Source of the DNA: a virus
Taxonomy: Duplodnaviria; Caudoviricetes
IMG/VR virus record: IMGVR_UViG_3300024269_000024
Coordinates: 64,001-128,000 of that record
Length of the DNA stretch: 64,000 bases
Strand: one strand, 5' to 3'
Within the stretch, counting starts at the first letter, position 1; each line of letters opens with the position of its first letter. Shown here piece by piece: positions 30,337 through 61,235 of the stretch. Under the pieces are notes generated by a model. That model was not told where the DNA came from and did no database searches. It was given only the letters and a program-made list of their open reading frames with translations. Made by a program: the position numbers and the translations under genes.

Positions 30337-32322
30337 TTAGAACAACATTTTTTTATACATTTGTTTAAAACTCATTCCTAAATTGCTAATGTTGGTTAAT
30401 AGTTTTAATGTAACATTGTTGTTTTGTAATCCTCCTATTGTCCTAACATCATTGTTGTAATGTGTATAGTTTTTAAGTGCATTTTCATTAACAAGTAATT
30501 TATATCCCAACTTATCCTCTCCTCTCTTGACTATTATACCATCTTCTTCAAATTTATTGAAGTATTTTGTAAATTTAACATATCCTATTAGTATCCCACT
30601 ATTATGTATATGCTTCCAACAATTGCTAGGATAAATACATTCTTTGTTAGGCAGTATATATTCAGTTATTAGTCTATTCAAGTTATCTTTGGTTGATTCT
30701 TTGATGTTGATTTTATTATTACACAATTCATGTAAATCACCCTTGAGGTATATGTCTAAACTTCCATCTTCATAAATTACTATTTTATCAACTAATATTA
30801 AAACTTGTTTTTTAGTGAGCTCACCAGTATTAATAATTTCATCTAACAAATTAATTGTTGATTTGAAGTTTTGTCTTATTTCATTTTCTTTTGAACTTAT
30901 ATTCATGGCATCCGAAATCTGCCTCTCTAAACAACCTATCATTTTGTATTTACTATTCATGGCCTCGCTGTACATATTATCAATAATATCACTCATACTT
31001 GGGTTGTTCATTATCTCACGCATTTTTTGTTCCATAAGCACTTTAACTTCTTGCTTAATTCTTTCTAGATCTTTTTGTAGGTCATTGACATTGTCTTGTT
31101 TTTTGAATTCACGTTCAAATATATTATCAAAGTTTTGTATTATTTTTACTAATTCTTGCCTGCAATCAGCAATGAATGTTATTAAACATTCTTTGATTTG
31201 ATAATCCATAATTGCATGGCTTGTACAAACACTAGTCCCAAATTGATTGTATGAGTTACATATATATCTAATATTTGATCCACTTTTTGCAGATGTTAGC
31301 GTTTTGCCGCAATCTGCGCATTGCAATAGCCCATTAAACAAATTGTCTTTTTTAACTTTCGTTCCACGATAAGGCTTCTTTTTTCGCTGCAGTCGTATTT
31401 CCTGTGCTAATTGAAATGTCGCTTTGTCTATAATTGGTTCATGAGCATCTTCAAATACATAGTATTTATCTGGAGAGTTTTTTGTTCGCTTGCCATTAAT
31501 TGTCCTACATATTGTTTTATGCAATGTGAGAGTGCCGATGTAAAACTTGTTGCTAAGTATTCTTTGTATAGTGTCACCTGTCCACATGGTTGCTTTAAGC
31601 CGAGAAGTTCTTCCAGTGCTTTCTATAGTAATCTTTCTAATTGTACTGGCAGTTGGCACGTTTTCTTTATTAAATTTGTCTGCTATGGCTCGCAGTCCCA
31701 TGCCGTTTATATATAAATCAAATATTTGTATAACATAAGGTGCAGTAGTGGTATCTATATAATACATTTTTTTGTTAACTGGATCTTTTTTATATCCATA
31801 AGGGACAGTGTTTATAAATGCCCCTTCTTTCTGCAATGTGTTGATGGCATCCTTAGTTTTCATACTGGCATCTCTGATATAATCTTCGTTCATCCAACCA
31901 TATATGCCAACCATTTTGTGTGTTTTGGGGTCAAGTGTGTCATACCCTTCATATACTGTTAATACACGTTTGCCATCTTCTAGTACATTTTCTAAAAACA
32001 ATTGCCCTTTAGCGTTGTTTCTGCTTAATCTTGATAAGTCTTTAAATATAATAACATCTACCATATTGTTGTTTAAATCACGTTTCAATCTATTGAATTC
32101 TGGTCTGTCCATTGTAAATCCAGAATATCCGTCATCTATGTAAAATTCGTCTATTATCATGCCGCGATCTTGGGCAAATTTAGTAATTATTTTTCTTTGA
32201 TTTGCAATACTTGAACTTTCACCATCTCCATCTTCACGAGATAGCCTTAAATATGCCACTATTCTAAGCGTAGTTTCATAAATGTTGTCTATTTTTCTTT
32301 TTGTATCAAATATATTGCTCAT
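30337..32322 (-). CDS. Large serine recombinase / integrase (661 aa)
   Basis: AYLRLSRED catalytic Ser motif, DDGYSG..DRPEF, KDLSRLSR, PYGY, recombinase domain (IL.N.FYIG, HEPII), Zn ribbon C.DCG...YIC...C, coiled coil. Confidence 0.92.
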   Translation of the reverse strand: MSNIFDTKRKIDNIYETTLRIVAYLRLSREDGDGESSSIANQRKIITKFAQDRGMIIDEFYIDDGYSGFTMDRPEFNRLKRDLNNNMVDVIIFKDLSRLSRNNAKGQLFLENVLEDGKRVLTVYEGYDTLDPKTHKMVGIYGWMNEDYIRDASMKTKDAINTLQKEGAFINTVPYGYKKDPVNKKMYYIDTTTAPYVIQIFDLYINGMGLRAIADKFNKENVPTASTIRKITIESTGRTSRLKATMWTGDTIQRILSNKFYIGTLTLHKTICRTINGKRTKNSPDKYYVFEDAHEPIIDKATFQLAQEIRLQRKKKPYRGTKVKKDNLFNGLLQCADCGKTLTSAKSGSNIRYICNSYNQFGTSVCTSHAIMDYQIKECLITFIADCRQELVKIIQNFDNIFEREFKKQDNVNDLQKDLERIKQEVKVLMEQKMREIMNNPSMSDIIDNMYSEAMNSKYKMIGCLERQISDAMNISSKENEIRQNFKSTINLLDEIINTGELTKKQVLILVDKIVIYEDGSLDIYLKGDLHELCNNKINIKESTKDNLNRLITEYILPNKECIYPSNCWKHIHNSGILIGYVKFTKYFNKFEEDGIIVKRGEDKLGYKLLVNENALKNYTHYNNDVRTIGGLQNNNVTLKLLTNISNLGMSFKQMYKKMLF

Positions 32323-33673: not shown

Positions 33674-33919
33674 TTAATTTTGTATTGTTTGTGATTTTAG
33701 TTCAATTAGTTTTGATACAATAAGTTCATATTGTTCATGTGGAATTGTGCATTTTGAACAATCTTTCCATCCGTTTTCTAACATGATATAGTTGCCGCCA
33801 CATTTGTCAAATGGATGCAGTGGGCAATAACAAAATAAACAATTGAAATTGCCCATATCTGCATTTACATGACAAGGAAAATATTCGCACTTGTCATTCT
33901 GAAAATACTTGTAACTCAA
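33674..33919 (-). CDS. Cysteine-rich small domain (zf-like) protein
   Basis: CEYFPCH..FNCLFCYCPL...CGG....G.KDCS.C.IPH family signature. Confidence 0.8.
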   Translation of the reverse strand: MSYKYFQNDKCEYFPCHVNADMGNFNCLFCYCPLHPFDKCGGNYIMLENGWKDCSKCTIPHEQYELIVSKLIELKSQTIQN

Positions 33920-35382
33920 CTACACTTGCTCCATCCACAAGACTTGCAAATATTACATCCACCTTCAAAAGTTAATGGCGACTGACATTCAGGACAAACT
34001 GAATCATTATTTACAACAAGTTCCTGCTTGTGGATATTTTCATGCGTTGATTCCTGGTAATTTTCGTCATCATCGCATTTAAGCTCATTTTGCATTTCTT
34101 TCCACATATCTAACAATGCGTTACCTACAGCCATAGGACAGCAACTACCCTTTGACGTGTCGTGTTTGGTTGCTCTACGAACTGCATAAGATGGGCAAGA
34201 TCCACAGCTATCAAGCTGATCAATAATATCATGAATGTTGCATCCAGATCTTGCAGCTAGAGAAATCATTCTACTTAGACCAACCATGAAGTTAGCGCAT
34301 CCACCTGTAGAACCCTTACTCAGGTATGTCTCCATAAGATCTCCAGTGATTGGATCAAAGAACGCTGTGCAATGTAGTGAGCCACAACCAGTCTGTAGCT
34401 TACGCTTCTTCCCCACACAATCATCAGATGTGGTAATGATAAATCCACGTGGAAGTTCAGTTGTCGCAGCAACGTTAGATTCTGTATTGGTAGTAGAGCT
34501 TGTACCAGTAGAAAGAATCGCTGCACGCTCGCAACCATCTCTAAACATTGTAATACCCTTAAGGCCAGCCTTCCATGCTTCAATATATAGATTTTCAACG
34601 TCTTCAACGGTAAACTCATTTGGAACATTTACTGTAGAAGAAATAGAAGCGTCAATGTAGTTCTGCCAAGCGGCCTGCATTTTAATTCTTTGCTTGTAAT
34701 CCAAAGATCCTGCAGTTACAAAGTAATCTGGTAGTTCGGAGTCATCAGTAAGACCATTACCATCCATGTATTCTTTAACAATTGGAGTATATACCTTATA
34801 ATACTTATCTTCGCCGTATAGGCTTTCGGTCTTACGAGTATAGTAGTTTGCGAAAATTGGTTCAATGCCGCCAGATACACCAAGCATTGTGGATAGTGTG
34901 CCAGTTGGGGCAATCGTTAGAAGCTGGCTGTTGCGTAGACCATATTTTTCAATATCATCACTAACTTCCCACCAAACATTGTTAATATAAAACCTAGACT
35001 TGATCAAATCTTTATGCCTATACTTTGGGAAAGCACCATGCTCTTTTGCAAGCATATTAGACGCCCTTAGTGCCGTATTCAGCATTGTTTCGGCAATGGT
35101 GTGGCACAGTGTAATAGATTCCTCGCTACCATATTTGACACCCATCTTAATAAGCATATCTGCGAGTCCAAAAATACCTAGTCCGATCTGTCTCCAGTCA
35201 CGCACACTATCACGCTGTTCCTGCAGTGGGTGTAGTGGCAGACCTTCATCTAGCACTTCGTTAAGTGCGATAGTTGCCATATAAACTGCATATTTAAATT
35301 CCTCAAAGTCAAAATCGTTGCTGTCGGTTACGAACGCTGATAGGTTCATACTACCGAGCAAACAAGATCCTCCAGCTGGTAA
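33916..35382 (-). CDS. nrdJ: Class II (B12-dependent) ribonucleotide reductase, exon 2
   Basis: LPAGGSCLLGSMNL, RQIGLG, TIAPTGT, SGGIEP, IDASISSTVN, GLKGIT.FR; TSCPD-like domain and C-terminal CPEC..EGGC..CKSCGWSKC. Confidence 0.92.
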   Translation of the reverse strand, partial: LPAGGSCLLGSMNLSAFVTDSNDFDFEEFKYAVYMATIALNEVLDEGLPLHPLQEQRDSVRDWRQIGLGIFGLADMLIKMGVKYGSEESITLCHTIAETMLNTALRASNMLAKEHGAFPKYRHKDLIKSRFYINNVWWEVSDDIEKYGLRNSQLLTIAPTGTLSTMLGVSGGIEPIFANYYTRKTESLYGEDKYYKVYTPIVKEYMDGNGLTDDSELPDYFVTAGSLDYKQRIKMQAAWQNYIDASISSTVNVPNEFTVEDVENLYIEAWKAGLKGITMFRDGCERAAILSTGTSSTTNTESNVAATTELPRGFIITTSDDCVGKKRKLQTGCGSLHCTAFFDPITGDLMETYLSKGSTGGCANFMVGLSRMISLAARSGCNIHDIIDQLDSCGSCPSYAVRRATKHDTSKGSCCPMAVGNALLDMWKEMQNELKCDDDENYQESTHENIHKQELVVNNDSVCPECQSPLTFEGGCNICKSCGWSKCS

Positions 35383-36572
35383 CATAATATTCCATAGGAT
35401 TCACAACTTCCTATGCGTTCTTTTATGAACTGCTATACGTCTCCGTATAGATTAGACTATATCTTCACCATGTTGTTCATGGGACTAGCACTTCCACTAC
35501 CATAAGTTTGTAGTGTACTCCCTTGTGGGATAGTCGTTGAGGTTAATCTATTTAACTTGGTCAGAGTTAAACTATTCTACTCTTTCTAATTTTATCCAAT
35601 CCTTATGTCTGCTGCCATTGCTGGCGTCCATTATTTTGATTGTTCCATCAGGCAATTTCCATTTATACTTTGGCTTTGGTTTCCGCAATGCAGCTTTATG
35701 TGCTTCAGATTTAGGTTTGTCACGCAAGCTTTCACTAACTTTCTCGTTCCATTCCTTTGTGTGAATCACATTCTTAAGACCATTCGAAATACGCTTGTTC
35801 ATGTCATCGCTATTTCGATATCCCGCTCTGCTTTTGTTTCCAATGCCATATGTGTTGCCTAGGCTTCTTTGTCTTAGTTTTTCTTTATTTGAGTCAGACA
35901 TTGGTGTGCCTTTTCTTCCAGTAAGCGTTTCTGAAATATGTTTTTTCCATTCATCGCTTTTGTTGGTCACGGCTTCTAATAATTTCTCTTTAACTTCTGG
36001 TCGACGCATCGCTTCTTTTGTTGCTTCGGATATCTTTTGCTTCCAGTTTTCTTTTTCTTCGTCCGTATATCCAGCAATCAAACATCCACCTTCGCCGCCG
36101 CTTGCAATGTTATATCCGTTGGGTCGAATTGTATTATATTTTTTTATATAATACTTTTCAAGTTCACAAAGTTCTGACTCGTTTTCGCATATATGCAAAA
36201 TGGTTTTTTCATAATATTTATATACTTTATTTTGCTCATAAACCCACTTATGATGCGTTTTTTTGCTACTATCTAGATCATTTCTATTAAATCTTTTTCT
36301 ATAGGATTGCCATAATAGAATGCCGCTTCCCATATACTTAGTATTATCATTTTGATCTTTTCCAATGTAGCTTAATCCTGTTATTAAATTTGTAATTTTA
36401 TATACTTGCACATGTCATCACCAATACTTGCGTTTTAGATTAACCTGCTGATTGACTCTATTTGACAAATTTTTAGGGTAAGTGACCAAACTTACATTAA
36501 CCTCCTATTGTCAACCTAACGAGTTGTCCCAGCATTTCACTAGTTTTATAGAGCCCCCACCAGCAACTATTA
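35383..36572 (-). mobile_element. Group I intron (1,190 nt) in nrdJ
   Basis: 5' exon ends in U (GAGCCU) pairing with IGS GGGCUC; terminal G at 35383; P10 GCUGGUGG/UUACCAGC. Core elements P (AAUGCUGGGA), Q (AAUCAGCAGG), R (UCAACGACUA), S (AAGAUAUAGUC). Splicing restores NPCAEEP-LPAGGSC. Confidence 0.92.
35572..36411 (-). CDS. Intron-encoded GIY-YIG homing endonuclease with NUMOD3-like repeats
   Basis: VYKITNLITG..YIG, Y.GSG, ELEKYYI...GYNI..GG; repeats KSDEWKKHISE and HTKEWNEKVSE. Confidence 0.88.
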   Translation of the reverse strand: MQVYKITNLITGLSYIGKDQNDNTKYMGSGILLWQSYRKRFNRNDLDSSKKTHHKWVYEQNKVYKYYEKTILHICENESELCELEKYYIKKYNTIRPNGYNIASGGEGGCLIAGYTDEEKENWKQKISEATKEAMRRPEVKEKLLEAVTNKSDEWKKHISETLTGRKGTPMSDSNKEKLRQRSLGNTYGIGNKSRAGYRNSDDMNKRISNGLKNVIHTKEWNEKVSESLRDKPKSEAHKAALRKPKPKYKWKLPDGTIKIMDASNGSRHKDWIKLERVE

Positions 36573-37385
36573 AGGCTCTTCGGCACATGGGTTTGTGCCA
36601 GCATAATGGAAATCATTGAATCCACTTAGCAAATTCCAGTTATCAATTCGATCCCAGAAAAGCATTCCAGGCTCTCCCATATTCCAATTGTTCTTCGCAA
36701 TCTTATGGAATAGCTCCTTGGCCTTTACAACCTTCTTGATCTCTTCTCCAGTCTCTTGGCGCACAAATGACAGCTCATAGTCTTCGTCGGCAATTACAGC
36801 TTTCATGAAATCGTCTGTAATACGAATTGAAATGTTAGCCTTTGTAACACGGTTTAGGTCGTTTTTGATGTCAATGAATTCTTCAATATCTGGATGGTCG
36901 CAAGATAGTGAAATCATAAGTGCGCCTCTGCGACCATTTTGTGAGATGAGCCCAGTAACCAAAGAATAAAGGTCCATAAATGATACCGCACCAGAAGATT
37001 CTTTTGCGGCGTTTCTAACCTTGGCACCATTTGGAGCAAGCTTAGATAGGTCTACGCCAATGCCACCGCCATAGCTGTATGTTCTTGCAATCTTCTTTGC
37101 ACATTCAAAAATTGATTCGAGATTGTCCTCTGGAGGCTCACATACATAGCAATTTGACATGCTAACCTTCCTACCAGAATGTTCTAGTCCTCTATTAGAT
37201 AGGATTCTTCCACCAAATAGAAACTTTTTATCAATAATAAGATCTCTTACAGCATTGTTGCCACCAGAAATACGATCTAGCCACTGGTCAAATGTTTCGT
37301 CTTCATAACGATACTTTCTTTCCCAAATATCAATGCCAAGCTGATTATCAGCACCTAACCACTCTTGAACGTTCAATATAATCAC
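36573..37385 (-). CDS. nrdJ: Class II ribonucleotide reductase, exon 1
   Basis: FLFGGRIL, SNCYV, GGGIGVDLSKL, SSGAVSFM, QNGRRGALM, HPDIEEFI, GEPG.LF, TNPCAE. Confidence 0.92.
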
Positions 37386-42362: not shown

Positions 42363-42394
42363 ATCTAACCACCCCTTTCATTAATTTTGTATTG

Positions 42395-43534
42395 TCACTT
42401 CACTACAACTAACATTTTACTAGCCCTTGTCACAGAAGTGTACAACCATTTCTTATGATATTCCCTGTCGCCGAGCCACTCGTCATACACAACAACTTTA
42501 TCAAACTCAGAACCTTGAGCCTTGTGGGTGGTAATTGCATATCCATAATCAAATTCATAAGCCTTATGAACATCTTTGAACTTCCACCAATTGTCCTTAT
42601 TTATAGTGCTTTCTTTGTCAATGAAGATTTTATAATCCATTTGCAAATTATTGTATACTCCACCACTATTAGAAGTAAATTTAGCAATCATCTTTGGATT
42701 ATACAACTTATCACTGCATAATTCAATGTCACTTACAATGCCTATCATGCCATTAATCAATGGTTCTTCATTACTACCAATTTCTTGCCATTCATTATGA
42801 AGACAAATAATTTTATCACCACCAATTGGCACACTAGCGCACTGATCTCCAAACTTAATTTTGCGCAACTTATCGTTCAAATAATGTCTGGTTGTATTTT
42901 TACCGCACAAAACTTGATCTGCACCCAACAAAAGTTTGTCAGATACGCTTTCCTGTGGAATTATCCTACACTCCTTTGGACCACCGTAATTAATCCATTT
43001 GCCATCACGAATATCCATACTAAGTCTAATAATAGGATTGTCTTGCGCCTGTCGCACGACTTCATCTAGCATTACGTGAGGATTATCTAGAATTGTACTA
43101 ATACCATCTATTGGCGGCAACTGCCCAGGATCACCTAATGCAATAACATGAACATGGTGAGATAGGAGCAATTCCCACATTTCTTGTGGTAACATACTGC
43201 ACTCATCTAGTACAACAATCTTATAATTGTAATCTAAACTTTTCTTAGGTTTAAATTCATACGTTCTGTCTGGTTTTTCTTTGGCGTTATACAATAACCT
43301 GTGCGCAGTCATTGAGTTGTTACATCCCTTACTTCTCAGCACCAATGAAGCCTTGCCAGTGTAAGCAATATATACAACACTCGCTTCGTCAACACATAGT
43401 GCATCAATAATAAATTGTACGAGAGTAGACTTGCCGCTACCAGCATAGCCAGCAATCACCGTATACGGTTCTTTATTCTTATACCTCTCAACCGCTATTC
43501 TCAAACCTTTTTCTTGTCCGCTAGTTAAAACCAC
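42395..43534 (-). CDS. RecD/Dda-like SF1B helicase
   Basis: GYAGSGKST, AYTGKA, DECSML, GDPGQLPP, YAITTHKAQGSEF, LYTSVTRA. Confidence 0.9.
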   Translation of the reverse strand: MVLTSGQEKGLRIAVERYKNKEPYTVIAGYAGSGKSTLVQFIIDALCVDEASVVYIAYTGKASLVLRSKGCNNSMTAHRLLYNAKEKPDRTYEFKPKKSLDYNYKIVVLDECSMLPQEMWELLLSHHVHVIALGDPGQLPPIDGISTILDNPHVMLDEVVRQAQDNPIIRLSMDIRDGKWINYGGPKECRIIPQESVSDKLLLGADQVLCGKNTTRHYLNDKLRKIKFGDQCASVPIGGDKIICLHNEWQEIGSNEEPLINGMIGIVSDIELCSDKLYNPKMIAKFTSNSGGVYNNLQMDYKIFIDKESTINKDNWWKFKDVHKAYEFDYGYAITTHKAQGSEFDKVVVYDEWLGDREYHKKWLYTSVTRASKMLVVVK

Positions 43535-52169: not shown

Positions 52170-52514
52170 TCATCTACACTTTGCGCGAAAAGTATAATTA
52201 GATCCGTTAGTAGACGTATATAATCTACAAACAAACCCATCATCATGCCCATTGTTGGTGTAATCATATGGCTCGTTTGCTTTAATATTCTCTATATCAG
52301 ATGTAGGTATGAGAACTGTATTAACACACCAATCATCGTTACGACAATTATTGCACATTGTCCAGAGTCGATCTGGACACGCGGACTTACAAGTAACTTT
52401 AATAATGGTCCAGTGCTCTGGTTTTAATTCACAATTTTCTTCGTGTATATAGCAGCGAGTCTCATCATTTTCAAACTGCTTGCCACAGTATTCGCAAATA
52501 TAAAGCCTTTTCAT
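52170..52514 (-). CDS. C2H2-like zinc-finger protein
   Basis: YICEYCGKQF.....C..HE..C. Confidence 0.6.
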   Translation of the reverse strand: MKRLYICEYCGKQFENDETRCYIHEENCELKPEHWTIIKVTCKSACPDRLWTMCNNCRNDDWCVNTVLIPTSDIENIKANEPYDYTNNGHDDGFVCRLYTSTNGSNYTFRAKCR

Positions 52515-53698: not shown

Positions 53699-53965
53699 TT
53701 AAAATATATAATCTTCCACGTCATATGGTCTAAAATCTCTGTAGTTGTTGTGCTTATTACAACTGTACTCATACATACATGTCAGTTCACAGCCGTATAC
53801 ATAGAACGAATTTACACAGCATCGACACATATCCCTGTCTGTCATATTCGCAATATAGTACTTGATCTTTTCTACATCTTCAAGGTGCAAAATCTCATGA
53901 TAAGCACAACATGTTTTATCTGAGAATTGCTTGCCACAGTGCTCACATTCATAGATTGTTTTCAT
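53699..53965 (-). CDS. C2H2-like zinc-finger protein
   Basis: YECEHCGKQF.DK..C..HE..H. Confidence 0.6.
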   Translation of the reverse strand: MKTIYECEHCGKQFSDKTCCAYHEILHLEDVEKIKYYIANMTDRDMCRCCVNSFYVYGCELTCMYEYSCNKHNNYRDFRPYDVEDYIF

Positions 53966-54314
53966 GATGTTCTTTCACCTGCTTAAAATATTCTGGCCAC
54001 GAAAACCATTTATCTTTCATTAAGTGCCCAATCTTAGTGATTTTAGCACCCCAGCCTTCACTTTCAACTCTGCAATACTGACCAACAAGATCTTCCCAGC
54101 ATTCTACTTCAAAGGTCTTCATTAGTTCAATAATCGCACCATAGCCATCAGAGGAATAATACTCGCCTGGTTTGCAGAACCAATGGTCTAAGCAATAGCC
54201 GCCTGGTGTGCAGCCCCAACCATCACCTTCGATTGTAATGTATGCAGTGAGACAGCCGTGATCTTCGCCAAGTCTAGTGTGAGTGATTTTGGCGTTTAGA
54301 ATTTCTGTAGACAT
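53949..54314 (-). CDS. Conserved phage hypothetical protein
   Basis: NAKI...LG.EDHG.LT...G.GWG...GGY.LD...WEDL.G.Y.RV...IGH...WF. Confidence 0.6.
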   Translation of the reverse strand: MSTEILNAKITHTRLGEDHGCLTAYITIEGDGWGCTPGGYCLDHWFCKPGEYYSSDGYGAIIELMKTFEVECWEDLVGQYCRVESEGWGAKITKIGHLMKDKWFSWPEYFKQVKEHHENNL

Positions 54315-54325
54315 ATTAAAGCTCC

Positions 54326-55546
54326 TTAATTCCCAATCTCAATCAAATACTTAATAGTCATCTGATCATTTCTATAAAACACAATTTCGTCATTTATCAG
54401 CATCCCCTTGTCCGCTTTTGCATGCAGACAATTACATTTAGGATTCTTGTTCTGCAGTACATTGTAGTTCAAATGATAACAACTACTATCATGCTGGTAT
54501 ACAACATAAGGAGTTCCATAGGCCACTTCAAACAACGCCATGTAAGCGACATTGTTTCCACCATGTGCCCAATAAGAACCAGACAGCGAGGTGTATCCAA
54601 TGGACTTTTGACACTTAGGGGCAAAGTAGATTCCATCTGAAAACATGGAGCCTGTGTATACAGCATTACTAGGACGAATCATAAGGCCAGTTTTAATAAT
54701 GGAAAACCAATTCTCACTGCGGCTACCATGAAACAGCAATCTGGTGTCCTGAATATCATTCTCAGCAATAAACTTATCAAAGCGTTCCTGAGTCTTAAGG
54801 TTCTTAACTCTCCAAGCCCTTCTAAACTTGCCAGCGGATTCATTCATAAGCTTCTTAATGAGCGCAATATCATCCGCAGTAGTTTCTTCCATTTCAAGTC
54901 CAAGTTCTTCAAGAATAGTTTGCTGTTTCTTTTCTACATGCTCAACAGGTTCATGCTCAGGTTTCACATAAATCTGACCGCGCATAACGTCAAGAAGATC
55001 CTGTTCTTTGGAAATAATCTGTGCAAAGTCTTCTACTTTATCAGCTAGATAATCTCTGACATTGCCCATCTTTCTCGGAATTACCGTAAACAGTTTGAGC
55101 AGCTTGTCATTGAACGCTTCGATTGTAGCATCGCCATTTGCCAGCTCATCAATGATCTTCTGAGCCGCATCAACCATATCCTGAGTAACAGCAGATGCTT
55201 GAACGGTATAGTTCTTCTGAATGGTTTCGCGAGCTAGACCCTGAAGCTTTTCTACGATAGCTTTGATTGCTGCGTTTTCAATGTCTCTGTAATGGCTTTC
55301 AGGATTGGCAGAAGAGATTTTCTCTACCAAATCCTGCTTTAGGTCTGTTACATCTTGATATCCCTTATTAAGCTTACTGGAAATTTGCGTGTTCCATTTA
55401 GACATGGGATAATATCTTGTGGTTTTAGTTGCATCAACTCGTCCGTACTCGACTCTAAACTGGTCACCTTCTGGAAAAAGATTATAATACTTATTGTTAT
55501 TCGCAGTTGTAACCATAATAAGATAAGTGGGTCTAATCTCTGCCAT
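54326..55546 (-). CDS. Poly(ADP-ribose) polymerase-like protein: WGR + helical regulatory + catalytic domain
   Basis: NNNKYY...YGRV...KL.KGY (WGR); LFTVIPRKMG...KEQDLLD (PARP_reg-like); LLFHGSR.ENWFSII..GL.I.P, GSMF.DGIYFA, KSIGY, LFEVAYG, NDEIVFY (H-Y-E triad). Confidence 0.9.
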   Translation of the reverse strand: MAEIRPTYLIMVTTANNNKYYNLFPEGDQFRVEYGRVDATKTTRYYPMSKWNTQISSKLNKGYQDVTDLKQDLVEKISSANPESHYRDIENAAIKAIVEKLQGLARETIQKNYTVQASAVTQDMVDAAQKIIDELANGDATIEAFNDKLLKLFTVIPRKMGNVRDYLADKVEDFAQIISKEQDLLDVMRGQIYVKPEHEPVEHVEKKQQTILEELGLEMEETTADDIALIKKLMNESAGKFRRAWRVKNLKTQERFDKFIAENDIQDTRLLFHGSRSENWFSIIKTGLMIRPSNAVYTGSMFSDGIYFAPKCQKSIGYTSLSGSYWAHGGNNVAYMALFEVAYGTPYVVYQHDSSCYHLNYNVLQNKNPKCNCLHAKADKGMLINDEIVFYRNDQMTIKYLIEIGN

Positions 55547-55561
55547 AACTCAAACCTCCAA

Positions 55562-55987
55562 TTAGAGTTCGCAAATTACAATCTCAACGTCCATGTCTTC
55601 AAATACTTCGCAAATGATTTCATAAACCTTGCTCCAATCTAAACGATCCAAGCCAGAAGCAATGCGTGGCATGGCCAGCTTGGCTACATTCAGAAACTCC
55701 ATAAATTCTTTCATCATTTCCAGTGCGGCTCTTACGGTTTCATAAGTAGGCTTGTGCCAATATTTCTGCTTAGTAACAAGATTAAAAACGTTGTCTACTG
55801 GTAGCGCATCGCCACCACAATACTCATAATCAGGATAATTTCTGAACAGCTTAAATCGCATATTATAAACACTATCAAAAGTCTTTGCGATACCAGCTCC
55901 GAGTGCAAAGTCGGCAGAGATACAATGTGCTAGATAATAACCCTGGGGCATAGTAAATAGGTCACGCTTTTCAGTAGTAATAGTCAT
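55562..55987 (-). CDS. Macrodomain ADP-ribosylhydrolase, TARG1/OARD1/DarG-like
   Basis: DLF, LAHCISADFALGAGIAKTF, FNLVTKQKYWHKPTY, LAMPRIASGLDRLDW. Confidence 0.9.
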   Translation of the reverse strand: MTITTEKRDLFTMPQGYYLAHCISADFALGAGIAKTFDSVYNMRFKLFRNYPDYEYCGGDALPVDNVFNLVTKQKYWHKPTYETVRAALEMMKEFMEFLNVAKLAMPRIASGLDRLDWSKVYEIICEVFEDMDVEIVICEL

Positions 55988-56025
55988 AAATCATTTCTCC
56001 TTTATAATTCATTAATTTTGTATTG

Positions 56026-57630
56026 TTACCAAACGTCTTCAAATTTAAAATCATTCAAGATTAACTGTCTGTAATAAGTTCTTCCAAAATATCCACTATC
56101 AAGCTGTCCCACTCCATAAAATTCTTTATCTTCTAGGTCCCACATATCATCCCATCCATTAAAATTCCACTTAATAAATGTGACATTTGGGGTTGTAATT
56201 TTGAGGTGTTTGCCGCCCGACATATTGCCAACTTCGTAATCAGATACCTCTCCAATCATAACCGTAATTGGAGCAAATCCAGAGCCAGAAATTTTATTAA
56301 TATCCTTAATCTGTTTAATTAGGATATCTGTAACTTGCTCTGCGTCAAGCTGAATATCAATATCACAAGACTGAACAAATTCGACGTCTCTCAGTACATC
56401 TTCTATTTTGTTTTTAAATTCTTCAAATCTATTAATTGGTATAAATGCGCCTGCGGCCAGCTCATGGCCCACACAAGATCCAATTCCAGTATCATTTACT
56501 ATCTTGGTAAAATTATCTATACCAATTGCTCTCATAGACCCAGCGTAACTATTGCCTACAGTTCTGAGCACAAACAATGGACGCTGATATTTTTCTAGCA
56601 ATTTGTTACCCATCAAACCTGCGACTTCTGCATCAACATCGACAAAGAAGTACATACACTTTTGGTCTAGCTGTGCGTCTCCTTGTCTAATTAGCTCTTC
56701 CATCTGATCCGCCACAATATCGTTTTGCTTTTCTTTGCATTTCTTTAGATCACGAATAAGAGCATTTACTTCTTTTGCATCGTCAGATAGAAACATCCTC
56801 ATGGCCTTTTTGTTTTCACTCATTCTACAGGCAGCGTTCGCAAGAGGGGCCAGACCAAAACTGACAGCTTTGGAATCAAACCCATAAGAACCATTAATTT
56901 TTGAAATAGCAAGGTTTCTTTGGTGGTTGAAACCCTGATAACAAATATATCTGTTTTCTGCCGACTGTTCGGAAACATCGCACATATCAGCAATAATACC
57001 TGCCGCTGCTAGATCCCAGAATTCTTCTGAATAGTCGTTCCAAGTTACTTCATCAATGTACTGACAAAACTTGAATACGACACCTGCACCACTTAGTGCT
57101 GGATTTGGGTAGTTGTTAGCAGAACTTATCAGACAAAATGGTAAATTTGCATCAATCAGTCGCTGCTCAATTAGGTGATGGTCACACACAATCAGCTTTG
57201 CACCTGTGTTTAGGATATTTTTATATACTTCTGGATCGTTGTTAAGAGAGTCAACAATAATTAGTGTGGTATTTTTGTCCAACATTTCAATCGGAAAATC
57301 TTCCGCACCATGCTTTTTACCTTCATTAATATATGTATCAATATTGTCAGTAAAATTTCGCAAGTATCTCGTCATAATTGTACCAGATGATAGACCATCC
57401 TGATCAACGTCGAAGAATACCACAAAACGATTGTTATCTTCGATTGTTTTTAATACAATATTACATCCCTCTTCAAGCCCTTGCATTTCTTCAAAAGGGA
57501 CCATTGAATCTTCTGGTGGAGTCATAAAGGTTTTGTAATTTTTAATACCTCTGCTTTCCATAAGAGCTTCAATGATTTCAAGATGATCCATGTCTCTGCC
57601 ATCTATTTTAATGTTCCAATTTTTCTTCAA
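56026..57630 (-). CDS. recJ: RecJ-like DHH ssDNA exonuclease
   Basis: DVDQDG..S, IIVD, CDHH, LSGAGVVFK, ADM, AP.ANA..R, GSMR, GHELAAG. Confidence 0.88.
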   Translation of the reverse strand: MKKNWNIKIDGRDMDHLEIIEALMESRGIKNYKTFMTPPEDSMVPFEEMQGLEEGCNIVLKTIEDNNRFVVFFDVDQDGLSSGTIMTRYLRNFTDNIDTYINEGKKHGAEDFPIEMLDKNTTLIIVDSLNNDPEVYKNILNTGAKLIVCDHHLIEQRLIDANLPFCLISSANNYPNPALSGAGVVFKFCQYIDEVTWNDYSEEFWDLAAAGIIADMCDVSEQSAENRYICYQGFNHQRNLAISKINGSYGFDSKAVSFGLAPLANAACRMSENKKAMRMFLSDDAKEVNALIRDLKKCKEKQNDIVADQMEELIRQGDAQLDQKCMYFFVDVDAEVAGLMGNKLLEKYQRPLFVLRTVGNSYAGSMRAIGIDNFTKIVNDTGIGSCVGHELAAGAFIPINRFEEFKNKIEDVLRDVEFVQSCDIDIQLDAEQVTDILIKQIKDINKISGSGFAPITVMIGEVSDYEVGNMSGGKHLKITTPNVTFIKWNFNGWDDMWDLEDKEFYGVGQLDSGYFGRTYYRQLILNDFKFEDVW

Positions 57631-58376
57631 ATCATGTCATCCTCCAGTACTACACAATTAATTTTTCCACTATGAGCGCAACAAGCATCAAGCGCAATAA
57701 AACCATCACCATAAAATGGGTCAAACTTTGCATCTGCTCCGAACTCACTGCGGCCTTCAAGTTTTGCCCAGCCAGTGCTGCAATGCCAATGGCCAAAAAC
57801 AAGTGTTTTATTAGGAAGCAAACCGCATTCTGCAAGCTCAAACGGATCACCCCATCTTGCATCATCCCACTGTGTTGCATGAGCTTCACGCCAATTTTCC
57901 ATCTTTGTGTAGTTTTTGCCCCGAAGATAATACGGAGGTAGAATACTATCACATTCAAGCGGGACAAAGCTGTGAACGAAGATGTAATTCTTAGTTTCTA
58001 AATAATTTACCATGCCGTCAACAAACTTTAAAACCTTTGGATAGATTGCTATACAAGCTTCTTCAAATGTATTGGCGCTTGGGGCAAGATCAATAATTGT
58101 TTGGGCGGTACCATTGCTCCAATCGTGCCCCTGTGGATATTCGCGTGCAAGACAATCCATTATGAGATCTTCGTGATTTCCGCGTATTAGAATTTTGCGC
58201 TCCAGAGACGCAAGATAGTCTATAACTTTATGTGGCTGTCTGCCCCTATCGGTATAATCTCCAAGCCCTACCAGAAAATGATTTTTATTATTTTGATCAA
58301 ATCCCGCTTCATCAAGCGCTTTGCACATTTCATCATAGAACCCATGCACGTCACTGATGCAAAACAACTTTGCCAT
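57627..58376 (-). CDS. Calcineurin-like metallophosphoesterase
   Basis: SDVHG, LGDYTDRG, RGNHE, FVHS, FGHWH. Confidence 0.9.
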   Translation of the reverse strand: MAKLFCISDVHGFYDEMCKALDEAGFDQNNKNHFLVGLGDYTDRGRQPHKVIDYLASLERKILIRGNHEDLIMDCLAREYPQGHDWSNGTAQTIIDLAPSANTFEEACIAIYPKVLKFVDGMVNYLETKNYIFVHSFVPLECDSILPPYYLRGKNYTKMENWREAHATQWDDARWGDPFELAECGLLPNKTLVFGHWHCSTGWAKLEGRSEFGADAKFDPFYGDGFIALDACCAHSGKINCVVLEDDMI

Positions 58377-58400
58377 CTATATCTCCTCCCATCTATAGCT

Positions 58401-58429
58401 ATTATACACCATTAATTTTGTATTGTCTA
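58401..58429 (-). promoter_or_regulatory. Promoter with the 17-bp motif in its spacer
   Basis: TAGACA-17-TATAAT; motif 58410-58426; 16-bp box 58430-58445. Confidence 0.75.
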
Positions 58430-58483
58430 TTGACGCATTAAACAAATATGGGCCGCAGTTTTACTACGACCCATACAATGTTA

Positions 58484-58681
58484 TCACTCCTGTCTAATGT
58501 GATAATAAAATTCTCCAGAGTTAGGATTCTCAACAGTCACAACACTACCGCCAAGCAGCATCATGTCTAGAGCGGCCAAAACGCGAACAGTGGGAAGATC
58601 AAGATCATACGAGATTTCTCTGGGCGTCTTATCTGCGTTGCCCTTAAGATAGCTATAAATTTTATTAATAATATTTTCCAT
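58484..58681 (-). CDS. Small winged-helix DNA-binding protein
   Basis: KIYSYLK....TPREIS..LDLP...V.AAL..M...G.V......YY. Confidence 0.6.
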   Translation of the reverse strand: MENIINKIYSYLKGNADKTPREISYDLDLPTVRVLAALDMMLLGGSVVTVENPNSGEFYYHIRQE

Positions 58682-58725
58682 TTTTCATTCTCCTTAATTT
58701 TGTATTGTTGTTTGCAAACGTATTC

Positions 58726-58754
58726 ATTATACTGTATTGCGGCGTGTATGTCAA
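58726..58754 (-). promoter_or_regulatory. Consensus sigma-A promoter
   Basis: TTGACA-17-TATAAT; motif downstream at 58692-58708 abutting the RBS. Confidence 0.85.
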
Positions 58755-58761
58755 GTTAAGT

Positions 58762-59634
58762 TTAGTGTGCGGCTTTATCTGCTTCGTGGAGCAAATCAAT
58801 GTACTGCTTAAGATATGTAGGTAGATTGTTGTAATACTTACTATTAAAGAATGGTTCCATATGGTTACAAATTAACCAAGCTACAAACGGAGTAACATTT
58901 CTAATTCCATAAGACATCCATGCTCCATAGTTGTTATGAAAGTAAAAATGCGCTATATCACAAGGATTACCCTTCGCATCCACAAACGCTTTCACTGCAG
59001 GCTTGCCAATGTCATGTAGCCATGCGGCCCATTGTAGTTCAAAATCATTGGTGGTCTTTAGCATATATTGGTAAGCTGCTTGGCAATGATCATAAATGTT
59101 CAGAGTATGATGAGGATTGTCATGTGGAATCTTCATTTCATCTACCAATATCATTTCATAAATACCATCATCATATTTAACAGATTTTACAACTTCAATG
59201 TGGTCAATACCTTCGTCGTACCATGGAGCCTGAAAACGCTTGAGCATCCTGCCAATTACTTCTGGACCAACAGTACGCTCTCTTTCGGCATCTCTTCTAA
59301 TACAATCTTCAACAGGTGCCCAGATAATATGTGCCTCAATTTTTACAAACTTTGGACATGCTGAAATGATATAAGCGCGATCTTTGCGAGTGATGTTCGT
59401 TGCGTCATACAGCACATTCTGACCATTGTTTAGTGCTTCGATTGCTCTGGACTGCATTAGAGAGAACACTTCATGGTTATCACCCTGAATCGCTTCATTC
59501 CCCCACAGTTCTTTTCTGATAGAATCAGAAGAAAGATGAATTACATTGTCGTGAAACTTTGCGTATTCTTTGGCATAGTAGGTTTTACCTGAACCAGGGA
59601 TTCCTACGAGTAGAATTAGGGTTGGTCTGTTCAT
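58762..59634 (-). CDS. Polynucleotide kinase (AAA_33) fused to HD phosphoesterase
   Basis: LVGIPGSGKT, SSDSIR, DATN...R; NPHH.L...H, LHDIGKP, H..H, NHM, EAD. Confidence 0.85.
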   Translation of the reverse strand: MNRPTLILLVGIPGSGKTYYAKEYAKFHDNVIHLSSDSIRKELWGNEAIQGDNHEVFSLMQSRAIEALNNGQNVLYDATNITRKDRAYIISACPKFVKIEAHIIWAPVEDCIRRDAERERTVGPEVIGRMLKRFQAPWYDEGIDHIEVVKSVKYDDGIYEMILVDEMKIPHDNPHHTLNIYDHCQAAYQYMLKTTNDFELQWAAWLHDIGKPAVKAFVDAKGNPCDIAHFYFHNNYGAWMSYGIRNVTPFVAWLICNHMEPFFNSKYYNNLPTYLKQYIDLLHEADKAAH

Positions 59635-59635
59635 T

Positions 59636-59745
59636 TTAATCACCTACTTGTTCTATTAAAAATTGTGTTGTTTCTAATTGTAAGTCATCAATACATATTT
59701 TAGAAAAATATGTATACGGGATTCGTATTAATGGAACATTAGCAT
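59636..59745 (-). pseudogene. Remnant of a deleted free-standing endonuclease
   Basis: GAGG SD + ATG joined out of frame to NVPLIRIPYTYFSKICIDDLQLETTQFLI, resembling the C-terminus of phage Vsr/PD-(D/E)XK-type endonucleases. Confidence 0.5.
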
Positions 59746-59775
59746 ATTTTATTCCTCATTAAAACATTTTGTTAT

Positions 59776-61209
59776 TTATTCTTCCTGTGCTTCTTCTAGG
59801 TCTGGTTCAAGTGCTTCGTCCTTGATAATGCCCTCAAGAACCTTGAAAGAGAAGTTCTTATGCTTGTAGACCGCAATATTGGGACGATTTACGATACGAG
59901 CCACTACACCTTCGCGAATATGAGTCTTACCAATTGGGTCGGGGCCATCAAAGTATTCTTCAACCTTACGCAGGACATATTCGCCAGGGTTAACATGGAT
60001 GCGCCTAGTTGCAACCCAGTTTTCAGCGAAATCAACAGCAGAATATTCTTTAATATATTCAGGAATAATGAATCGTTCAAATACGGGCACAGCATTTACG
60101 CCCATCTGTTCACAACGCATGCGCATCTGATCAGGAGACATCTCTACGACATCACCGTCTTCGTTAGTCATAGTCATGCGGTAAACATAAACTTCGCACT
60201 TAGGAGGAAATACCTCAGTTGGAGATCCATTAGCAACATAAAAGCCATCTGGCTCAACAGAGTGAGGTTCCCAGCCACCAAGAGGTTCGCAACCATAAGA
60301 GAATACTGTTTCTTCACCGTACTGCTTAGAGAATTCTTTGTCCTTAATCTTGGAATTCTTTACAGATGCCATGATAGGGGTATCCTCGTTTACGAAGCCT
60401 ACGATTTCGTAGTAGACCGTTTCGTTTTTACGTAGCTTACCTTCAAACTTCTTTGCCATCTCTAGTCTGAAATTGTTATCATCATAATATCCACCATCAT
60501 GCTTGTCATCAAGAACAACACGACGAGTACCAGTTACATAACCATATTCCACATATTCCTTGCCAGGGCGACGACGAATCTTATCCCATAGAGTCTGCGG
60601 CTTACGATGATGCAGCGGCAGATAACCAGTACGACCGCTAGTTCCATGCATCTTGAGCGTTAGCTCTACAATGTCTCCAGCCTTAAACTCACCCAGATTG
60701 TATGCCAGCTGTGCAGTATCAACATGCTCATAGAAAGTAGGTGCAAAATTAGCCTTTGCTCTCTTGCCGCCACCACCATGATAAGTATGAGATGCATGAT
60801 TGCGCCTTGGAATATACTTCTTGCAGATCTCCTTACCATTTAGCATAGAAATTGTATCGCCTTCCTTGAGATCAGAAATCTTACAGAAGTCAGCTAGGCA
60901 AGTTAGCGGAAGGAATAGTCCATCAGACTTTTCACCGCGAAGCTTTAGTGCCTTAATGTTGCGCTTTTCAGGGTCTAGATAACCACCACATAGATTGCCA
61001 TTTTCATCCTTGCGACGCACAAGATCATTCGCCTTGCAAAATTCCTCAGATAGCTGACCATCTACAGGGAAGTAAACGCCAAGCTGTCCTTCCATATAAT
61101 CCATGGATACGATTACAGAGTTTCCAAAACATTCGCCAATCTGTAGGCGATCTGCGTTAGAATGCTTGCGCACATTCTTTAGAATAGTAACAAAACCAGT
61201 GTATGCCAT
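59776..61209 (-). CDS. ATP-dependent RNA ligase with N-terminal OB domain (DRB0094/Rnl5-like)
   Basis: H.NADRLQI, LKLRGEKS.GL; motif I KMHGTS, III YYEIVG, IV REGVV, V YKHKN. Confidence 0.82.
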   Translation of the reverse strand: MAYTGFVTILKNVRKHSNADRLQIGECFGNSVIVSMDYMEGQLGVYFPVDGQLSEEFCKANDLVRRKDENGNLCGGYLDPEKRNIKALKLRGEKSDGLFLPLTCLADFCKISDLKEGDTISMLNGKEICKKYIPRRNHASHTYHGGGGKRAKANFAPTFYEHVDTAQLAYNLGEFKAGDIVELTLKMHGTSGRTGYLPLHHRKPQTLWDKIRRRPGKEYVEYGYVTGTRRVVLDDKHDGGYYDDNNFRLEMAKKFEGKLRKNETVYYEIVGFVNEDTPIMASVKNSKIKDKEFSKQYGEETVFSYGCEPLGGWEPHSVEPDGFYVANGSPTEVFPPKCEVYVYRMTMTNEDGDVVEMSPDQMRMRCEQMGVNAVPVFERFIIPEYIKEYSAVDFAENWVATRRIHVNPGEYVLRKVEEYFDGPDPIGKTHIREGVVARIVNRPNIAVYKHKNFSFKVLEGIIKDEALEPDLEEAQEE

Positions 61210-61235
61210 AATTCTTGCCACCTTTTATATTTTGT

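Follow-up and report, generated by a model that had tools for sequence, protein, structure and literature searches.

A 64,000-nucleotide stretch of DNA from a virus of the Caudoviricetes (IMG/VR record IMGVR_UViG_3300024269_000024), hereafter the window, contains two adjacent genes that together form a conserved unit in one clade of related phages. One encodes a 406-residue protein with the WGR-HD-CAT architecture of PARP2 and PARP3, predicted from sequence and structural modelling to be an ADP-ribosylating enzyme, and the other a 141-residue macrodomain protein of the TARG1/DarG type, which is a candidate ADP-ribosyl hydrolase. The window comprises bases 64001-128000 of a 158-kb record that is estimated to be 95% complete.

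The two proteins and their genes

The 406-residue protein matches the Pfam PARP family at 77.5 bits (cut-off 26.7), and its catalytic H-Y-E triad is intact: H273 lies in FHGSR, Y307 in GIYFA and E387 in NDEIV, which align to HGSR, GIYFA and NEYIV of PARP1. All three residues are invariant in 100 family members; in the 123 diverse relatives from which we built a family profile, there is no variation at H273 and Y307, and at least 90% keep E387. This profile is collinear with the WGR-HD-CAT region of PARP2, its positions 12-402 aligning to PARP2 residues 130-583 (E 8.3e-36), with the family's NNNKfY and veyGRvg opposite PARP2 NNNKYY and MRWGRVG and the helical domain (HD) following. In the phage protein the NNNKYY block is present and the WGR signature reads Y34-G35-R36, with tyrosine in place of tryptophan. 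A phmmer comparison aligned residues 125-349 to a PARP1 fragment made up of the helical and ADP-ribosyl transferase (ART) domains (E 6e-11), residues 125-250 being the helical part. The AlphaFold model, with a predicted local distance difference test score (pLDDT) of 92.9 and a predicted template-modelling score (pTM) of 0.90, has a beta sheet and a helix at residues 7-60 and is all-helical at residues 68-214. Its ten best matches in the PDB are all DNA-bound PARP2 or PARP1 WGR-CAT chains, most of them on double-strand breaks (E about 1e-19 over 470-490 columns). The features of DNA-dependent PARPs of the PARP1-3 type, namely an ART domain with H-Y-E, an N-terminal WGR domain and a helical domain ahead of the ART domain, were all found. 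Pfam recognized PARP in all 100 family members, WGR in 76 and PARP_reg in two; WGR is a feature of the family, and the helical domain is divergent.

The 141-residue protein aligned by phmmer to TARG1 (4j5r) over residues 3-139 with an E-value of 3.7e-23, and to DarG macrodomains at about 1e-3. Its AlphaFold2 model (pLDDT 96.2) has the compact TARG1-type fold without MacroD-type extensions. Foldseek superposed it on TARG1 (4j5q) with a template-modelling (TM) score of 0.90, a root-mean-square deviation of 2.1 and 40% identity, and on DarG with TM scores of 0.88-0.89 and 21-24% identity. NLVTK supplies K73 and GLD supplies D114, which align to ITKK and GLDRL of TARG1, and in human TARG1 the catalytic residues are K84 and D125 (PMC8120803). 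K73 is invariant in all 68 distinct PARP-linked macrodomains. Models of DarG gave weak matches (PADLOC, 1.6e-12 over positions 27-142 of 329; NCBIfam antitoxin_DarG, 36.9 bits against a cut-off of 250, within the macrodomain part only); we rejected membership of DarG on this score, on the length of 141 residues, on the absence of a C-terminal DarT-binding domain and on the identity of the neighbour, a PARP. We assign the protein, from sequence and model, to the TARG1/DarG-type macrodomains, closer to TARG1. A prediction of a complex between the two proteins scored 0.00 against a mark of 0.32, in a run made without controls, and weighs neither for nor against binding.

Both genes lie on the minus strand, with the macrodomain gene upstream and the PARP gene downstream (Table 1). 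Since the short spacer between them carries neither a copy of the 17-nucleotide motif described below nor a terminator-like site (a scan of 54326-56030 gave none), co-transcription of the two genes is likely, as judged from this layout. The small open reading frame (ORF) that follows probably shares the transcript; it had no Pfam, PADLOC or NCBIfam match.

Table 1. Features of the macrodomain-PARP locus, in order of reading along the minus strand (coordinates are those of the window)
Feature	Position	Strand	Description
17-nt promoter-like motif ACAATACAAAATTAATG	56010-56026	minus	ends 22 nt before the macrodomain ATG
TARG1-type macrodomain gene	55562-55987	minus	141 residues; candidate ADP-ribosyl hydrolase (eraser); K73, D114
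Spacer	55547-55561	minus	15 nt; GGAGG ribosome-binding site about 9 nt before the PARP ATG
PARP gene	54326-55546	minus	406 residues
PARP, WGR-like N-terminal domain	55349-55546	minus	residues ~1-66; borders approximate; from profile and model
PARP, helical (regulatory, HD-like) domain	54899-55348	minus	residues ~67-216; from phmmer, profile and model
PARP, ADP-ribosyl transferase domain and stop codon	54326-54898	minus	residues ~217-406; H273, Y307, E387; from Pfam
121-residue ORF, PHROG 30930 (unknown function)	53949-54314	minus	11 nt past the PARP stop

One base of the motif ACAATACAAAATTAATG ahead of the macrodomain gene lies in the stop codon of the preceding RecJ-like gene. With up to two mismatches allowed, the window holds ten copies, all on the minus strand and spanning 33672-61776, where 0.03 would be expected; ten copies were reached in none of 100 shuffles. 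Over the full 158-kb record the count is 35 (10 on the forward strand, 25 on the reverse), against none for a reversed-pattern control. When copy positions are read against the ORF lists, the copies lie on the same strand as the local genes, and one of them (42379-42395) directly precedes the DNA polymerase gene. The motif looks, from its position, like a phage-specific promoter or operator element. It is retained upstream of the macrodomain gene in nine of 15 close-relative loci and was not found in the loci of more distant relatives. A stretch nearer the macrodomain ATG was also tried as the 17-nucleotide motif and dropped (three matches where 0.74 were expected).

A first-pass annotation of the window, made from the letters alone, had described a phage module of two adjacent, co-oriented genes 15 bp apart behind a copy of a 17-bp motif. 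Its coordinates, gap, adjacency, orientation and quoted peptide motifs are all correct, with the genes on the minus strand, and the counts above show the motif to be real. Its reading of the longer protein as WGR, helical and catalytic domains with an intact H-Y-E triad holds by profile, model, fold matches and residue alignment alike, and its TARG1/DarG-type macrodomain with the NLVTK lysine and GLD motif stands, nearer to TARG1 than to DarG. It had called the PARP eukaryote-like, which is an overstatement: the protein is a member of a large and abundant prokaryote and phage family of 2968 clusters at 50% identity with E <= 1e-3. At E <= 1e-30 the family has 653 such clusters, and a word-limited search gave 4263 clusters at 90% identity with E <= 1e-3.

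Conservation of the gene pair

To the locus in the window we compared the loci of 15 close viral relatives, the best 80 of 249 distant viral matches, the best 80 of 124 matches in prokaryote genomes, and four GenBank phages. A PARP ORF was called in 177 loci; three without one were dropped (L071, L148 and L158), and L005, L181-L189 and L196-L198, which are the window's own DNA or records already included, were left uncounted. ORFs were the longest ones, chosen greedily, whose starts possibly lie too far upstream, and were searched with the macrodomain profile. We call a locus linked when a co-oriented macrodomain gene lies within 1 kb upstream of the PARP gene, and not assessable when there are under 500 nucleotides upstream of it.

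Table 2. Linkage of macrodomain and PARP genes by source and by identity of the PARP to that of the window
Loci	PARP identity	Number	Linked	Detail
Viral	>=70%	15	15	
Viral	48-70%	79	74	65 adjacent, 7 within 1 kb, 2 adjacent with weak TARG1-profile match; other five: 3 none, 1 weak match elsewhere, 1 not assessable
Genome contigs	48-70%	16	13	
Genome contigs	44-48%	4	0	
Genome contigs, mostly Bacteroidota-titled	<44%	58	0	52 none, 5 not assessable, 1 weak match 3.3 kb downstream
GenBank phages	<44%	4	0	FBKp34: weak match 2.4 kb upstream

The pair is linked in 102 of the 110 loci whose PARP is at least 48% identical to that of the window (Table 2). The first-pass annotation had named the absence of linkage in other genomes as grounds for giving up the proposed module, and this survey does not refute it. 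When the PARPs were merged at 90% identity, 50 clusters were linked throughout, 62 had no linked member, five were not assessable and none was mixed. In a FastTree phylogeny of 87 representatives (midpoint root, no outgroup), the 28 linked rows all belong to a single group of 35 rows with a support of 90, short of the level starred on the tree; a well-supported set of 42 rows encloses this group. The linkage label requires 4-5 changes on the tree versus about 24 when shuffled. The macrodomain gene is also the most constant neighbour of the PARP gene, present in 90 of 100 loci (99 fetched loci and the window), the next being Pol III alpha with 52. The macrodomain-PARP pair is a conserved unit, in one clade only. 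Cultured-host relatives of this clade are Clostridia (Lachnospiraceae, Ruminococcus and Lacrimispora in record titles), with prophage-like loci in the isolates titled Lachnospiraceae bacterium TWA4, Ruminococcus sp. YE282 and Lacrimispora amygdalina (L103, L107 and L115).

The arrangement varies somewhat within the clade. The gene adjacent upstream of the PARP gene in L074 encodes a canonical Pfam Macro domain (37.4 bits), and that in L088 matches the TARG1 profile as weakly as the one in L074. In L092 the macrodomain gene lies 506 nucleotides downstream of the PARP gene. Eight viral loci have 790-870 nucleotides between the two genes; the insert of L016, the single one scanned, encodes a homing endonuclease of the GIY-YIG/NUMOD3 type. 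We also considered the genes downstream of the PARP gene in the window (those for the 121-residue protein, an 88-residue protein and YqeY) as conserved partners, and rejected them because they occur near PARP in only eight, one and two of the 89 linked viral loci, respectively.

Several loci showed features of separate interest. In L058 (4989-5990) and L065 the macrodomain ORF before the PARP gene is about 333 residues long with an N-terminal AAA_28 P-loop domain, which may be a fusion or an over-extended ORF call. L038 (4074-7212) has tandem PARP paralogues of 415 residues (Pfam WGR and PARP) and then 406 residues, separated by a 185-residue ORF without family matches, and no macrodomain. Among the mostly Bacteroidota-titled loci L119-L180, a protein of about 97 residues without a Pfam match is encoded just downstream of the PARP in 30 of 60 loci (for example L151, 1748-2041), and in L128 the downstream gene encodes a 315-residue protein with a WGR domain only. 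Finally, L121, a 425-kb contig from a metagenome-assembled genome titled Pacearchaeota, encodes a PARP 44% identical to that of the window next to a gene for a pyrimidine-dimer DNA glycosylase (Pyr_excise, E 7e-22). In the tree this PARP stands with that of the uncultured phage LR756500 (462 kb), so what was binned as part of an archaeal genome may be a huge phage.

A possible ADP-ribosylation cycle and its alternatives

We propose, at roughly even confidence, that while the phage DNA is replicated and repaired the pair runs a break-triggered cycle of ADP-ribosylation with a built-in reset; its enzymatic activity, triggering by DNA breaks, substrates and biological role are all predicted here from sequence, models and analogy. 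The two genes would be expressed as a co-transcribed writer-eraser module within the phage's programme of DNA replication and repair. Through its WGR domain the PARP would attach to nicks or ends carrying a 5'-phosphate, on DNA that is damaged or being replicated, and DNA binding would release the auto-inhibition imposed by the helical domain. The H-Y-E site could then use NAD+ to ADP-ribosylate the PARP itself and nearby proteins on acidic residues; an intact triad is no guarantee of polymer synthesis. The macrodomain protein, translated before the PARP from the shared transcript, would hydrolyse the ester linkage to the modified protein, taking off single units or whole chains. Erasure would free the sensor from the break, end the signal and limit the loss of NAD+, and the NAD+ spared would also serve the phage's own NAD-dependent DNA ligase.

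A PARP that acts without the cofactors found in eukaryotes attaches ADP-ribose to acidic residues. Mono(ADP-ribose) is removed by both human TARG1 and a bacterial TARG1, which also take poly(ADP-ribose) en bloc off automodified PARP1 (PMC6397177). Because TARG1 cuts the bond to the acidic residue and lifts whole chains off PARP1, its chemistry fits the pairing of this writer with this eraser. PARPs of the same architecture from Herpetosiphon and Clostridioides difficile make poly(ADP-ribose) in vitro, that of Herpetosiphon requiring DNA (PMC8120803, PMC5966428). Other possible erasers were sought in the phage genome. Microbial PARG (PARG_cat_microb, DUF2263) gave no match at E <= 0.1 in the 158-kb record, with a positive Deinococcus control, which led us to reject a PARP-PARG system, and neither an ARH-type hydrolase nor a second macrodomain was found in the phage genome. 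A link to NAD+ salvage by the phage was likewise set aside, as no NAPRTase or NAMPT-type gene was found (the NadR and NMNAT families were outside this search).

The operon lies within a minus-strand block of replication and nucleotide-metabolism genes. Directly upstream of it (56026-61221, minus strand) are genes for an RNA ligase, a P-loop kinase with an HD domain, a calcineurin-like phosphoesterase and a RecJ-like exonuclease, which together look like an RNA or DNA end-repair set; farther off are genes for an NAD-dependent DNA ligase, a Dda-like helicase, Pol III alpha, thymidylate synthase and ribonucleotide reductase. Across 103 linked loci, the flanks contain Pol III alpha in 51, an NAD-dependent ligase in 43, an ATP-dependent ligase in nine and an ERCC4 nuclease in 33, and a ligase gene directly precedes the macrodomain gene in 20. 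Such neighbours, replication genes and ligases, suggest that the operon acts at DNA breaks.

They also bear on an alternative that we consider unlikely, in which the pair reversibly caps nucleic-acid ends. The PARP would ADP-ribosylate 5'- or 3'-phosphate termini of phage DNA or RNA, which would keep host exonucleases and phosphatases off ends and nicks or make these ready for ligation, and the macrodomain would uncap them before ligation or packaging. In a narrower form, to which we give the same low credence, the PARP would cap the 5'-phosphates of nicks and ends in phage DNA with ADP-ribose or poly(ADP-ribose) and the TARG1-like protein would be a dedicated uncapping enzyme; capped ends would be hidden from host RecBCD/AddAB-type nucleases or passed to the neighbouring ligase as a pre-activated, adenylate-like end. 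In vitro, phosphorylated DNA ends are indeed substrates of PARP1, PARP2 and PARP3, and TARG1 undoes the modification made by PARP3; a capped end resists phosphatase and may serve as a ligase substrate (PMC8385414). The ligase gene ahead of the macrodomain gene in the 20 loci noted above, and the position of the window operon behind genes for a RecJ-like exonuclease, a phosphoesterase, a polynucleotide-kinase-like protein and an RNA ligase, would fit such a scheme. However, end modification by PARPs has so far been seen in vitro, with roles that the same source calls speculative (PMC8385414), and these end-processing neighbours occur near PARP in just 6 to 14 of 89 linked viral loci, all of them close relatives. 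The same confinement led us to reject a reading of the locus as an RNA-repair system based on its RNA ligase, kinase and phosphoesterase genes. If end capping did take place, it would give a natural in vivo role to a reaction known mainly in vitro and described as having no established role (PMC8385414).

Several observations weigh against a break-triggered cycle in which writer and eraser depend on one another. The replication context is frequent but not universal among linked loci, about half of which show no ligase within 6 kb, and many of the examined loci are close relatives of one another. Since the pair is found in none of the 62 loci with PARPs below 44% identity (58 genome contigs and four GenBank phages), and six rows inside the linked clade lack it too, a neighbouring macrodomain is dispensable for PARPs of this family. 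At the level of the proteins, Pfam WGR and PARP_reg did not reach E 0.01 in the 406-residue protein and Pfam Macro scored 18 bits, below its cut-off of 22, in the 141-residue one, so that all three domains (WGR, helical and macrodomain) were assigned from comparisons of profiles and structures. At the position of D114 the 68 linked macrodomains differ, with aspartate in 43, asparagine in 14, glycine in 10 and glutamate in one. Furthermore, in a collection of cultured phages, 16 records encode a PARP and 34 a TARG1-like macrodomain, with no accession in common, and these 34 records without a detectable PARP indicate that this type of macrodomain has PARP-independent uses.

Such records would also suit two separate functions on one transcript, with the macrodomain serving in counter-defence, erasing DarT-type marks on DNA or the marks of other host ARTs or degrading signals derived from ADP-ribose, and the PARP acting alone. 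Orphan erasers borne by phages and neutralising DarT1 have been reported (PMC11825919), phage domains that target ADP-ribose have been argued to counter mostly its soluble derivatives (PMC9503650), and DarG and TARG1 have a common catalytic lysine (PMC8385414), here the invariant K73. Nevertheless, we find this explanation very doubtful: chance co-transcription would leave unexplained why a single neighbour is so constant (90 of 100 loci, against 52 for the next family), and why in L074 a different type of macrodomain occupies the same position.

The order of the genes, eraser first and transferase second in a tight operon, resembles that of DarTG-like pairs, and DarTG likewise places a TARG1/DarG-type macrodomain with a conserved catalytic lysine next to an ADP-ribosyl transferase, there DarT and here a PARP. 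The pair could by this likeness be a toxin-antidote or conflict module, in which the PARP drains NAD+ or modifies host proteins and the macrodomain is the immunity factor, for host takeover or, in a prophage, for aborting superinfection when foreign DNA ends appear. Within the clade the PARP almost never occurs without the macrodomain, which has the weak DarG matches given above; the phage encodes a large serine recombinase and may be temperate; and phage PARPs have been suggested to act on host proteins in the manner of T4 ARTs (PMC7824862). We nonetheless regard this explanation as improbable. The pair sits in the replication and nucleotide-metabolism block under a motif common to the DNA polymerase gene, and the recombinase is not adjacent. 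The PARP retains the WGR and helical domains that impose DNA dependence, and has no significant PADLOC match (best E 0.0098, 12.7 bits). The macrodomain, at 141 residues and 36.9 bits against 250, is without the toxin-binding domain of DarG, and the PARPs of the mostly Bacteroidota-titled contigs have no adjacent antidote.

Elsewhere in the window, the large serine recombinase gene (30337-32322, minus strand; phrog_95 integrase, E 8e-100) stands at the junction of the structural and replication blocks and suggests that the phage is temperate. A single ORF of 5668 residues occupies 5617-22623 on the plus strand; its first 3000 residues match tape-measure families (phrog_4211, E 2.8e-91), and if it is a tape measure, its size would point to an exceptionally long tail. 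The large subunit of ribonucleotide reductase is encoded in two ORFs of 271 and 489 residues (33916-37385, minus strand) separated by a homing-endonuclease gene (35572-36411), which may reflect an intron- or intein-type split or a broken gene. Two small proteins (53699-53965 and 52170-52514, both minus strand) have a common N-terminal C-x2-C...H zinc-finger-like motif, with 15 of 25 residues identical (E 2e-6), and matched no family.

Relation to known systems and significance

The closest parallel to the proposed break-triggered cycle is human PARP2/PARP3 together with TARG1 (OARD1). The domain order WGR-HD-ART and the intact H-Y-E are the same, and the phage macrodomain is 40% identical to human TARG1 with the same fold and the same Lys/Asp pair. 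The phage PARP is about 17-18% identical to PARP1 and PARP2 in structural alignments; it has Y for W in the WGR motif and no N-terminal extension, and its ART domain is without a stretch of about 20 residues that precedes the catalytic Glu in PARP2. In contrast to the human system, both phage genes form one operon. The PARPs of Herpetosiphon aurantiacus and C. difficile CD160 are likewise prokaryotic WGR-(helical)-CAT proteins with H-Y-E, and many bacterial PARPs lack a Pfam-detectable PARP_reg yet model with a helical domain, with Y commonly replacing W (PMC5966428). The eraser investigated in these bacteria is a PARG whose gene lies at another locus (PMC5966428), whereas the eraser candidate of the phage is a TARG1-type macrodomain encoded in the PARP operon.

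Annotated PARPs of cultured phages (Cellulophaga phi4:1 and phi17:2, Klebsiella FBKp34 and Xanthomonas XacN1) are 25-32% identical to that of the window over 96-98% coverage, and in the Cellulophaga phage a DNA ligase gene lies two genes from the PARP gene. None of them adjoins a TARG1-like macrodomain, and in three of the four records there is none within 4 kb; Macro-like genes occur elsewhere in all four genomes, two of them above the Pfam cut-off. Other phage pairs of an NAD+-using modifier and a hydrolase are ART-ARG of Aeromonas phages and sirtuin-Macro of the Streptomyces phage Moab (PMC9503650), which belong to enzyme families different from PARP-TARG1. Section 3.7.1 of that review names no PARP-Macro pair and lists PARTs among the commonest viral ARTs.

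Phage PARPs have been discussed before (PMC4245714, PMC7824862, PMC9503650), and TARG1-like macrodomains in viruses have been noted (PMC4245714), so that the initial description of the pair as an undescribed system was overstated. We found no description of a PARP-TARG1 operon in the literature searched; the neighbourhood tables and figures of PMC9503650 and Table S1 of PMC5966428, which lay outside that search, could list the pair. What is new appears to be the conserved operon and not its parts.

Bacterial PARPs are active in vitro and of unknown function (PMC4245714, PMC8120803). The pair described here bears on the function of PARPs outside eukaryotes. It is a compact natural system of about 1.7 kb, in which a minimal PARP2/3-like candidate enzyme is accompanied by a dedicated TARG1-type candidate eraser and no PARG, and it is held together by selection across a large phage clade. 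The pairing predicts that the relevant chemistry is that of the bonds which TARG1 cleaves. Should the role at DNA breaks be borne out, PARP-TARG1 biology could be studied in bacteria and phages, and the operon would allow one to test directly whether DNA ends are ADP-ribosylated in vivo; if one of the alternative explanations is true, the pair would represent a novel type of phage weapon or counter-defence based on NAD+.

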